From a virus, in UHGV virus genome UHGV-0368963: a stretch of 13,943 nt of DNA; one strand, 5' to 3'. Each line of letters begins with the position of its first letter. The first letter of the stretch is position 1. This document shows positions 9,001 to 12,000 of the stretch, piece by piece. A program made the position numbers.

Positions 9001-12000
9001 CACCTCGCAAAAACTCTTACCTCACAATCAGCACAAAACCGGTCATGTCCGGTTTATATGTCTATTTTTTGCGCATGTCCGGTTCACGGAAAACCTGTTT
9101 TTATATTTTTTATGTAGTTAACTTGCAGAGAAACCGGACATGGTTCCCGGAAAATTTTCATAAATAGCGAAAACCCGCGAGGTCGCCGCCCCGTAACCTG
9201 TCGGATCGCCGGAAAGGACCCGCAAAATGATAATAATTATCATCTACATGTCACAACGTGCATCTACGCCATCAAACCACGTCAAATAATCAATTATGAC
9301 GCAGGTATCGTATTAATTGATCTGCGTCAACTTAACGTAAAAACAACTTCAGACAATACAAATCAGCGACACTGAATACGGGGCAACCTCATGTCAACGA
9401 AGAACAGAACCCGCAGAACAACAACCCGCAACATCCGCTTTCCTAACCAAATGATTGAACAAATTAACATCGCTCTTGAGCAAAAAGGGTCCGGGAATTT
9501 CTCAGCCTGGGTCATTGAAGCCTGCCGTCGGAGACTAACGTCAGAAAAGAGAGCATATACATCAATCCAAAGTGATGATGGATGAACATCCCGGTTTCTT
9601 CCACCATCGCACCGGAAAAGCGACTATGAGGGTAACCCTGCGTCTGTCAGCACAGTAAAACCCGGTGTGCATCGTTTTTGATTATTCCCGCACACTCACG
9701 CAGAGGAGTTCCCCGTCGGGCTACGGTCATGGTTAATGCGGGAATACGGCGACGATACAGCGCATGATGTGTCTGGCCTGAATACCTTTATCCGTTAAAA
9801 GGGATATCAGTTAAGTTATCCCGTGCAGGGTATAAGCCATTATCAAGCCCACCCGTAGATAGGCTTTGTAATGACATCTTCAATTAATCAGCAGTTCAGG
9901 CTGTGTCACCTGCAAAATGTATTCATGCTCGACAGCCAGGACACGCTTCTCTCTCTTCCGTTCGTTCATTAACCGACTGCCGATCGTACCTTTCAGCTTT
10001 GAGCGTGTTTCTTTGATGGCGTAGCGGTGCTGCATTTCTTCGCCAATTGCCATGCGGCGGCTCAGTTGCTCTGCCATCCAGTTGAATGCTGCGATATAGC
10101 TCTCCTTGATTGCCGCAGCAGCTTTCCCGGTGAACCCCATCACAACCATGATCCAGCCATCTTTCGTCAGGCTGTACATCGGGCGAACCTTGCCCTGCTC
10201 ATCGATATAATCAGCCGACGCAAAATTGCGTTGGCTAAACTCACGCGAGCAATCAGCCTTAACCTGCTCGATTTTCCTGAGAACATCACCGTGTCGCTTG
10301 CCGAAGTACTTGGCAATTTTTCTGGATGTGGTAACGACCTCTCCGTTTTTGGCTTGCACCATTTCTCGGAAGTCGAAGGCTGGAATAACTGAATGATTAT
10401 TCATAGCGTCTTTACCTTTTAGAAAGTGAGCCTGTCTCACAGAAAAGCCGCCCGAGAGAGGTCGCCACCTATAACGGCATTTCTCAGGCTCGCTTACTGA
10501 AAGGCTCTCGTTAATATGCGCGTGAGATGCGCGTTTACTACGGACATAAAAAAGCCCCGCATCGCGAGGCTCATTAAATTGACTTTGTGATTTGCAAAAA
10601 AATTTATTTCAGGCATTGCGTCCTGATGTACTCCTGAAGCGTTCTCAGTGCTGTTTGGTCACGGATAATTCCGTCCCGGATACCGAGAACGTTTCGTCCA
10701 GCAACTGAAGAGAGTTCGACGGTGGCCTCATTGCCCATGCCGGAGGAGCTGGAGGTTTTGGCTGAGGCTGGCACAGGGCATTTTCCTTTGACGAGCACCC
10801 GACCACCATTATCAAGCTTACGCCGAAGAGCATCATTTTCAGCTTTCGCATTGGCTAACTCCTTCGTGTATTTAGCATCGAGTACATCAGCAGCACGCTG
10901 GCGCTGCTGCATGTCAGTAATGGTGGCGGTCGCCTGCTTCAGCTCTCTGGCGTTTTTGTCGCGCTGCTCTTTGTAGGCGATGGCGTTATCACGGTAATGA
11001 TTAACAGCCCATGACAGGCAGACGATGATGCAGATAATCAGAGCGGAGATAATCGCGGTTACTCTGCTCATTGCTGCCCCCACAAACAGACTTCACGCTC
11101 AATCTCACGACGAGTCATCAGGCCTTTCCATTGCTTACCGCCAGCGTATGTCCAGCGACGTAGCTGGTCACATGCGCCTTTGATATCACCCTGGTTTATT
11201 TTGCGAAGAAGCGTCGATGTTCTGAAATTACCAGCGCCCACGTTGTAAACAAACGAGTAAAGAGCGCCGCGCGTTGTTTCCGGTATATCGACTTTGATGT
11301 ACGGGTTAATTTGTCTGGCGACCATGGCAAGGTCTTTATTCAGGAGGGCTTTGCATTCTGCTTCGGTATACGTTTTACCGGGAATGATGTCTTTTCCGGT
11401 GTGTCCGTGACATACAGTCCATACGCCAACGATATCTTCGTATGGTATGTAGCTGACACCTTCCAGGCCATCGTCACCACTCGGACCAGTGATGAGCACA
11501 GACGCTATGGCAACAGCCCCACCACCAATAGCAGCAGCAACAGCCTTGCGTAATGATGGCGACATTATTCACCTCTCGCAGCCTTACGCTTATCTTCTTT
11601 AATCTTGAAATAAAGGTTTGTCAGATACGTCAGCAAGCCAAACACCAGGCTACCCAATACGCCTATTGCCACCCACTGGGATGGGGAGACTTTGTCCAGC
11701 AACTGCAGTAGCCAGTATCCCGTCCCCACCGCTGACGTGGTGTATGACACACCTGTTGTTATTTTTTCCATCTGATGTATGTCTCCGTCACCACCGACAG
11801 AAAATGAAAGTAAAGAAAAACAAAAAAGCCGCCAGTGTCACCCACTGACGGACAACGCCGGGAGCCGTGATTATGGCATTCAGGCTCTGCTAAAAATGCC
11901 AGATAACATTCCGGCCTCCCCCGATTCAGGTTATAAATGACACAATATCTTGACAACATCCGTCACTGTCTGTCAGAAAATGTACTGCCATATAGAAGCA

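Follow-up and report, generated by a model that had tools for sequence, protein, structure and literature searches.

The window analyzed here, the whole 13,943-nucleotide (nt) stretch of UHGV virus genome UHGV-0368963, represents the late region of a lambdoid phage in reverse complement. Beside its cohesive-end site (cos) we located a 64-codon open reading frame (ORF) with an ATG start at 9391-9585 on the + strand, oriented away from the packaging genes and cos. Judged from its sequence, this ORF is almost certainly a real gene of the YlcI/YnfO (DUF3950) family. We favor the view that its product is an Arc/Mnt-like ribbon-helix-helix (RHH) protein that would serve as a prophage-expressed, sequence-specific transcriptional regulator and may be iron-responsive. 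The initial annotation had placed a divergently oriented ORF here, next to cos, and the ORF call, with Nu1 and the terminase on the - strand, confirmed this arrangement. The gene had the following features:

9391-9585, + strand: YlcI/YnfO-family (DUF3950) coding sequence, 64 amino acids (aa), MSTKNRTRRTTTRNIRFPNQMIEQINIALEQKGSGNFSAWVIEACRRRLTSEKRAYTSIQSDDG (ORF call, translation, family models, ratio of nonsynonymous to synonymous substitution (dN/dS))
9380-9383, + strand: weak Shine-Dalgarno-like GGGG, 7 nt 5' of the ATG (sequence; the same bases are the annotated ribosome-binding site (RBS) of CPT_434_77 in phage 434)
9421-9444, + strand: codons 11-18 (TTRNIRFP), presumed DNA-contacting beta-strand (invariant columns, hhalign register, extended in AlphaFold2; putative strand assignment)
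9445-9537, + strand: codons 19-49, predicted helix A (NQMIEQINIALEQK), GSG turn, and predicted helix B from NFSAWVIEACRRRL (AlphaFold2, Pfam DUF3950 match)
9538-9582, + strand: codons 50-64, variable C-terminal tail (homologue translations)

Family models placed the protein clearly. It scored 72.8 bits against Pfam PF13132 (DUF3950; cut-off 25) over residues 21-49 and 37.6 bits against NCBIfam NF041551 (YlcI/YnfO family protein; cut-off 30), and residues 1-60 matched PHROG 949 (E = 2.3e-35), whose function is listed as unknown. The core motif K-x-I-R-F-(P)...N-F-S-(A/S)-W-V-x-(E/D)-A-C was present in the window protein. Across 55 family sequences, I15, R16, F17, I25, F37, S38, and W40 were invariant and P18, N36, V41, A44, C45, and L49 nearly so. 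Escherichia coli K-12 contains two copies, ylcI (b4589) in the DLP12 prophage and ynfO (b4533) in the Qin prophage. By blastn the gene was found in 4184 of 5426 complete E. coli genomes, where it is annotated by the Prokaryotic Genome Annotation Pipeline, with up to 12 copies per genome. One E. coli genome contained a DNA copy 100% identical to the ORF, annotated as "YlcI/YnfO family protein", and many genomes have an identical protein in their annotation.

The family is thus already catalogued, and the gene is absent only from the reference lambda records. In agreement with the initial annotation, no lambda gene is annotated here: NC_001416 and J02459 are empty at 48109-48303 (complement), where the 64-codon ORF is intact. 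Newer lambda records label the lambda copy "hypothetical protein", and in phage 434 the gene is annotated as CPT_434_77. The reference lambda records therefore lack a conserved gene under purifying selection that is annotated everywhere else, and annotation-based screens never tested it; the genome-wide CRISPR interference essentiality map of lambda followed the reference annotation, so the gene was not included (PMC10695390). The lambda "orf-64" was considered as a name for this gene and rejected, since that name belongs to lambdap73, another gene, which lies between Q and S. No function for YlcI/YnfO was reported in the literature searched, and ynfO is listed among uncharacterised K-12 genes.

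The closest copies differed little from that of the window. The K-12 ylcI DNA was 96.9% identical to the ORF, and the K-12 genes occupy the same slot, each divergent from a Nu1 homologue (nohD or nohA), with the cos remnant and Fur box in between as well. The ynfO type differed in its C-terminal tail, which is of another sequence and longer and brings the protein to 77 aa, and in the DUF1398 gene that follows it directly. Of the last five residues, three differed between the lambda copy (64 aa) and the window protein; the 434 copy (64 aa) departed from the window protein at two positions, and both phages had the leader, Fur box, cosQ, and cosN as in the window. Beyond the gene, lambda had ybcW-like, ybcV-like, and bor genes, whereas the window had a Rha gene.

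To study natural diversity, we drew homologues from phage records and from a second protein search that started from distant family members. Among the homologues in phage records, the first 50 codons were gap-free across lineages, and codon position 3 held 30 of the 44 variable sites within them. Over the same codons, pairwise dN/dS against the Stx/HNH-type phage copies was 0.02-0.14. The sense frame was unbroken in all natural homologues. The comparison of synonymous and nonsynonymous change across phages proposed in the initial annotation thus returned a preserved frame, and purifying selection in the ORF's own frame leads us to reject the alternative that it is fortuitous.

A 50-codon antisense ORF at 9363-9515 (- strand), on the strand of the late transcript, required separate treatment. 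Its wobble positions coincide with those of the sense frame, so the codon-position count alone cannot separate the two, and we used stop codons and per-frame dN/dS instead. The antisense ORF had stops in 4 of 9 homologues and had lost its ATG in two, which ruled it out as a gene. Its dN/dS (0.16-0.37) was above that of the sense frame every time, and sense dN/dS was lower than that of every antisense frame.

The C-terminal tails diverged, giving total protein lengths of 64, 66, 75, and 77 aa by phage lineage, and variable sites among the lambda-like copies concentrated from nt 137 on. These lineage-specific tails place a mosaic junction within the gene's 3' end.

The first protein search and the genome-contig scan were discarded as a source of natural diversity, since copies of lambda control DNA, contaminating or full of errors, dominated both. 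In dozens of public "genomes" the gene sat on contigs of ~3.5 kb or on short low-coverage contigs labeled Streptomyces, Cohnella, Pedobacter, Staphylococcus, Veillonella, or various metagenome-assembled genomes. Such contigs look like lambda control DNA contamination, for example from the nanopore control strand derived from the lambda right end. Many of these copies carried sequencing errors that imitated protein diversity. Separately, E. coli CP178306 contained a frameshifted ynfO-like copy (1616593-1622733), either a decayed prophage copy or a product of homopolymer sequencing errors, and a tblastn match in Pasteurella phage Pmp7 lay antisense to an annotated repressor gene.

An AlphaFold2 monomer prediction from a 55-sequence alignment had an extended N-terminus and helices at residues 19-32 and 34-62, with a mean predicted local distance difference test (pLDDT) score of 67. 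A lone chain taken from an RHH dimer would be expected to look like this model. Foldseek against the PDB returned Arc (1par) first, then ArtA, NikR, PrpA, and ParD2, with Reg576 also present; the matches were mostly RHH proteins, all with E ≥ 1.2 and not significant. Structure prediction, a check named in the initial annotation, thus supplied the extended N-terminus and the two helices but no significant structural match and a mean pLDDT of the value given above. Profile and single-protein searches of the PDB yielded no relevant sequence relative.

Profile comparisons pointed in the same direction. The window protein alone matched phrog_497 (E = 0.02) and the Arc-like phrog_228 (E = 0.21) weakly, with its residues 4-55 on phrog_228 profile positions 4-54; one Arc-like and one HicB-like PHROG were among its weak matches. 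Of the 55 family members, 13, 9, and 8 matched three Arc-like repressor PHROGs (best E 1.3e-4) and 18 matched a HicB-like PHROG (best E 2.2e-5). Pfam matches across the family were weak (RHH_1 by one member, E = 0.24; HicB_lk_antitox by three, 0.022). By hhalign, the comparison with Arc gave E = 0.017 at a probability of 2.7%, with TTRNIRFPNQMIEQ aligned to Arc PQFNLRWPREVLDL, and TTRNIRFPNQMIEQ also fell in register with Mnt NFRMPMEVREKL. The same alignments set the strand stretch TTRNIRFP in register with Arc PQFNLRWP and Mnt NFRMP, and N14 and R16 at Arc N11 and R13. In Arc, N11 and R13 are base-contacting residues.

The window protein resembles Arc and Mnt of phage P22 in its small size, in the basic arm at its N-terminus, in the x-N-x-R-(W/F)-P motif of its presumed strand, and in two predicted helices, the second of which follows a turn containing glycine, but similarity to these proteins (and to CopG, MetJ, and the HicB C-terminal domain) was weak and the structural matches were not significant. 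We consider an RHH fold likely; on these models and profiles the RHH reading is probable rather than proven. Of the alternatives raised in the initial annotation, a small Arc/CopG-like regulator was the best fit to the PHROG, hhalign, and Foldseek results, with the correction that it had been overlooked only in the reference lambda records and is annotated elsewhere. In the mechanism we propose, the basic arm KNRTRRTTTR would lead into the beta-strand NIRF, which would pair with its counterpart from another subunit and enter the DNA major groove as a dimer. Helices at residues 19-32 and 34-49 would follow, and then the lineage-specific tail.

The location of the gene was conserved. In the window, lambda, 434, DLP12, Qin, and the Stx/HNH-type phages it occupied the same prophage position between the lysis and packaging genes, on the opposite strand, and it kept this position both beside the lambda-type Nu1/A genes and beside an unrelated HNH-TerS-TerL system. 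In the window it formed part of a mosaic block shared with lambda:

9152-9602: mosaic block with cosN, cosQ, the Fur box, the leader, and the ORF, ~96.5% identical to the lambda right end; flanks unrelated to lambda
9180-9191, - strand: cosN cohesive end, AGGTCGCCGCCC (GGGCGGCGACCT on the - strand) (sequence; linear lambda and 434 records end or begin here in alignment)
9215-9221, - strand: cosQ (GGGTCCT on the - strand), transferred by alignment from the feature in phage 434 record OL657226
9222-9390: non-coding leader between cosQ and the ORF, presumed promoter region, near-unchanged in lambda, 434, DLP12, and Qin (alignments)
9228-9242: perfect 7-1-7 Fur box TGATAATAATTATCA, with 1 exact match in the window against 0.00 expected
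9227-9254, - strand: predicted promoter-like GTGACA-16-TATCAT, directed toward cos and Nu1; the Fur box contains its -10 (10/12 in a consensus scan)

We take 9180-9191 to be the 12-nt lambda cohesive end. Identity over 9150-9602 was 96.5% to lambda and 98.8% to phage 434, and the lambda similarity ended at ~9152 on the cosB side and ~15 bp past the stop codon. This agreed with the initial annotation, which had described about 9200-9590 as nearly identical to the lambda right end and more conserved than the neighboring genes: the head genes were phage-21-like and only ~93% identical to their best relatives. Within the lambda-like group, variable sites numbered 12 of 148 in the leader and 13 of 165 in the ORF. 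Since the leader was as variable as the ORF, the near-identity to lambda reflects a recently shared mosaic block and not unusual constraint.

Between the Nu1 start and cosN (9037-9142) were four copies of CATGTCCGGTT, three exact and one with 1 mismatch, in both orientations; these are presumably the cosB R sites for the small terminase subunit of this phage. The segment was unrelated to lambda cosB, despite the shared cosN and cosQ.

Because the gene runs antisense to the late operon, it is out of reach of the late promoter and would need a promoter of its own in the 170-bp leader by cosQ. Consensus and position-weight scans of the region detected no convincing sigma-70 promoter or terminator on the + strand; the promoter-like site on the - strand scored highest in the region by position weights (11.07). 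The Stx/HNH-type homologues had a stronger RBS, GAGGA, at the same distance from the ATG. We propose that the gene is expressed from the prophage, as bor is, and that its product would act as a small sequence-specific transcriptional regulator. In K-12, ybcW-ylcI is listed as a convergent transcriptional overlap in ≥50% of RNA-seq samples (PMC12288877), which indicates that the DLP12 copy is transcribed without phage induction. A role as a transcriptional regulator expressed in the prophage state is, taken by itself, a tentative proposal that falls a little short of an even chance.

The Fur box lies 6 bp from cosQ, with its center 156 bp upstream of the ORF start, and may confer an iron response. 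The same box was present in lambda (48452-48466), 434, DLP12, and Qin, and across nine lambda-like copies its degenerate center was the sole variable base. The window box was identical to the DLP12 "nohB" Fur site, and lambda carried the Qin "nohA" version. In K-12 this box has long been attributed to nohA and nohB as a Fur site: Fur caused a gel shift of nohA, and the nohB cluster, at 25.3 bits, is the third entry in the table of strong Fur clusters (Chen et al. 2007, PMC2189734). Where that paper assigns the site to nohA/nohB, ylcI and ynfO go unmentioned (PMC2189734). The site lies 156 bp from the ynfO/ylcI start codon and ~235 bp from the noh genes. With ynfO/ylcI nearer and not named in that assignment, the target gene of the Fur site merits re-examination. 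If the proposed reading holds, lambda would gain one more regulator outside the late program, possibly tied to iron via Fur.

A search for an operator of the window protein covered palindromes and repeats, a comparison of lambda-type with Stx-type upstream regions, and the motifs of satellite relatives described below, and found no shared candidate. A 13-nt inverted repeat in the leader (9289-9301 and 9309-9321, -102 to -70 from the ATG) had no counterpart upstream of the Stx-type copies, though the beta-strand is common to both types. In the window, cos and Nu1, rather than a regulator, lie divergent from the ORF, and the search for repeated operator-like motifs there was negative.

Most family diversity was recovered, in the second protein search, from Enterobacterales satellites of the phage-inducible chromosomal island (PICI) type. 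These satellites carried an integrase, AlpA, an AntA/Bro gene, a primase, and often capsid genes. The DUF3950 gene stood where the alpA side meets the replication operon, on the strand opposite to both, in Klebsiella-type, Dickeya, Proteus, Serratia, Xenorhabdus, Providencia, and E. coli elements, and in satellites of at least seven genera it was the only divergently transcribed gene. The gene facing it matched the "transcriptional repressor" PHROGs phrog_1743/6196 in 5/5 loci tested (E down to 1.5e-45).

The intergenic gap between the two genes was 150-215 bp and in most loci contained two or three operator-like repeats. Three copies of GTG-N6-CAC, expected by chance at 0.02-0.04, lay at about -102/-108, -79/-85, and -33/-38 from the ATG in Proteus, Providencia, and Xenorhabdus and at -85, -63, and -29 in the Klebsiella-type elements. 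Dickeya and Serratia had three (G/A)TGTTTAAA(C/T)A(C/A) variants at a spacing of 23-24 bp, and an E. coli element embedded in its helper had two TGGTACGTACCA palindromes, one of them abutting the start codon behind TATAAT. Both GTG-N6-CAC and TGGTACGTACCA were absent from the window. The 12-bp motifs were often 23 bp apart, and the arrays were located as follows:

4916-4983 in satellite locus L058, a Klebsiella-type element
4878-4936 in satellite locus L060
4899-4979 in satellite locus L064
2881-2943 in satellite locus L074
2893-2974 in satellite locus L076
2899-2979 in satellite locus L077
4545-4589 in satellite locus L052

By analogy, this arrangement has the layout of a cI/Cro-like two-regulator switch. 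Together with the operator-like repeats, the divergent layout of the satellite relatives suggests a transcriptional regulator and supports that reading of the window protein. They hold the same divergent position as lambda cI/cro and the Stl/Rpr-str pairs of Staphylococcus aureus pathogenicity islands, facing a small repressor-family gene, but the likeness is one of position only, and the window has cos and Nu1 as the neighbor and no operator array. The layout with its motif arrays was not found described in the literature searched, and the global repressor of Gram-negative PICIs has been called "unclear" (Fillol-Salom et al. 2018, PMC6092414). If the reading holds, the DUF3950 family would mark the regulatory switch of Gram-negative phage satellites. 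A broader model is speculative and, as a whole, rather unlikely: DUF3950 proteins would be RHH repressors that in Gram-negative PICIs form half of an undescribed divergent switch, opposing a phrog_1743-type repressor across three GTG-N6-CAC sites as a candidate for the global repressor, and the lambdoid copies beside cos, preceded by a Fur box that ranks among the strongest in E. coli, would be iron-responsive prophage regulators that may cross-talk with satellites.

Several further observations came from the satellite loci. In E. coli CP027459 and AP026754 (L052 and L053), a lambdoid prophage had a PICI-type satellite inserted immediately after terS, apparently within the large-terminase gene. 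Of the three DUF3950 genes at this locus, the satellite carried two and the prophage one. Such helper-embedded PICIs have been described (Tommasini et al. 2023, PMC10111431). A natural fusion of DUF3950 with Terminase_2 (small terminase) adjoined a stand-alone DUF3950 gene in this satellite (P0252, 120 aa, L052 5001-5363) and was also seen in P0193, P0258-P0260, and P0262. An Rfam scan of the satellite loci matched only tRNA and int-alpA RNA, in two loci, and found no P4-type immunity RNA overlapping the satellite genes. Long - strand ORFs without a Pfam match ran across the DUF3950 gene at L056 4634-5608, L063 4631-5467, L074 2484-3044, and L076 2613-4118; they had no equivalent in sister loci and look like spurious products of read-through in gene calling. 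Islands surrounded the homologues of intermediate type, P0179, P0173, and P0153, and these contexts were uninformative.

The remaining explanations are less likely than an Arc-like RHH regulator. Rather than a transcription factor, the protein could be a DNA-binding packaging accessory whose site of action is cos, its vicinity, or the small terminase subunit. Its fixed place by the packaging genes in two unrelated terminase systems fits this idea, as does the 120-aa fusion with Terminase_2 in the helper-embedded PICI. We regard it as unlikely, since terminase is made from the late transcript, to which the gene is antisense, so that the gene should be poorly expressed during packaging, most family members stand at the satellite regulatory junction, far from terminase genes and without cos-like sequence, and the fusion protein is rare.

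The division of the family between lambdoid prophages and Enterobacterales PICI-type satellites raises the idea that the phage copy is a tool in phage-satellite conflict, with the prophage silencing or sensing resident PICIs. One locus, where a satellite with two DUF3950 genes sits inside a prophage carrying its own copy, would suit this idea, and the E. coli satellite copy has an N-I-R-F strand like the phage type. Phage and satellite proteins are only ~35-45% identical, though, and no operator motif was common to the window and the satellites, which leaves the conflict role improbable.

A third explanation, an antitoxin-like protein or adaptor, would have the RHH part autoregulate and the variable tail bind a partner such as the DUF1398 protein YdfO/YbcV encoded downstream in Qin-type phages. 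An RHH-like N-terminal core with a lineage-specific tail is compatible with this role, HicB-like antitoxins were among the weak PHROG and Pfam matches, and a DUF1398 gene followed the 77-aa ynfO-type variant on the same strand at a distance of 43-58 bp. Neither the window, where the convergent Rha gene comes next, nor the Stx-type phages had a same-strand partner downstream, DUF1398 is not known as a toxin, PADLOC gave no match, and recombination junctions explain the tail variation equally well, so we judge this role very unlikely.

The initial annotation had also allowed that the ORF was fortuitous and the DNA conserved as a cis-acting packaging extension of cosQ, a reading that we dismiss as extremely improbable: although the ORF starts 170 bp beyond cosQ, in one mosaic block with cosN and cosQ, and the reference lambda records annotate no gene at this place, it lies outside the cos-defining sequences and evolves as a coding sequence, with the low dN/dS, mostly third-position changes, intact frame, and stop-containing antisense frames described above, and homologues occur away from lambda-type cos, beside the unrelated HNH/TerS/TerL module and in satellites far from terminase genes. 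The segment responsible for cos function is well established as ~200 bp around cosQ-cosN-cosB, and the ORF falls outside it. What stood of the cis-acting proposal was the non-coding part of the block, with its cosN, cosQ, and Fur box.

The initial annotation had regarded the ORF as the only plausible + strand gene in the window; the Pfam-supported neighbors examined were all on the - strand. On that strand lay sialate-esterase-like, P21-type holin, lysozyme, Rz, and Rha-family genes, and beyond cos came Nu1, the large terminase, and head genes. Those nearest the ORF and cos were:

9880-10440, - strand: Rha-family gene, convergent with the ORF and the next gene after it
8487-8996, - strand: Nu1 gene (Pfam Phage_Nu1)
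6587-8572, - strand: large terminase ORF

Where the ORF and the Rha gene converge, the gap contained a cluster of inverted repeats at 9785-9835 that overlap one another and have TATCC/GGATA as their building unit; they may be bidirectional terminators or protein-binding sites.

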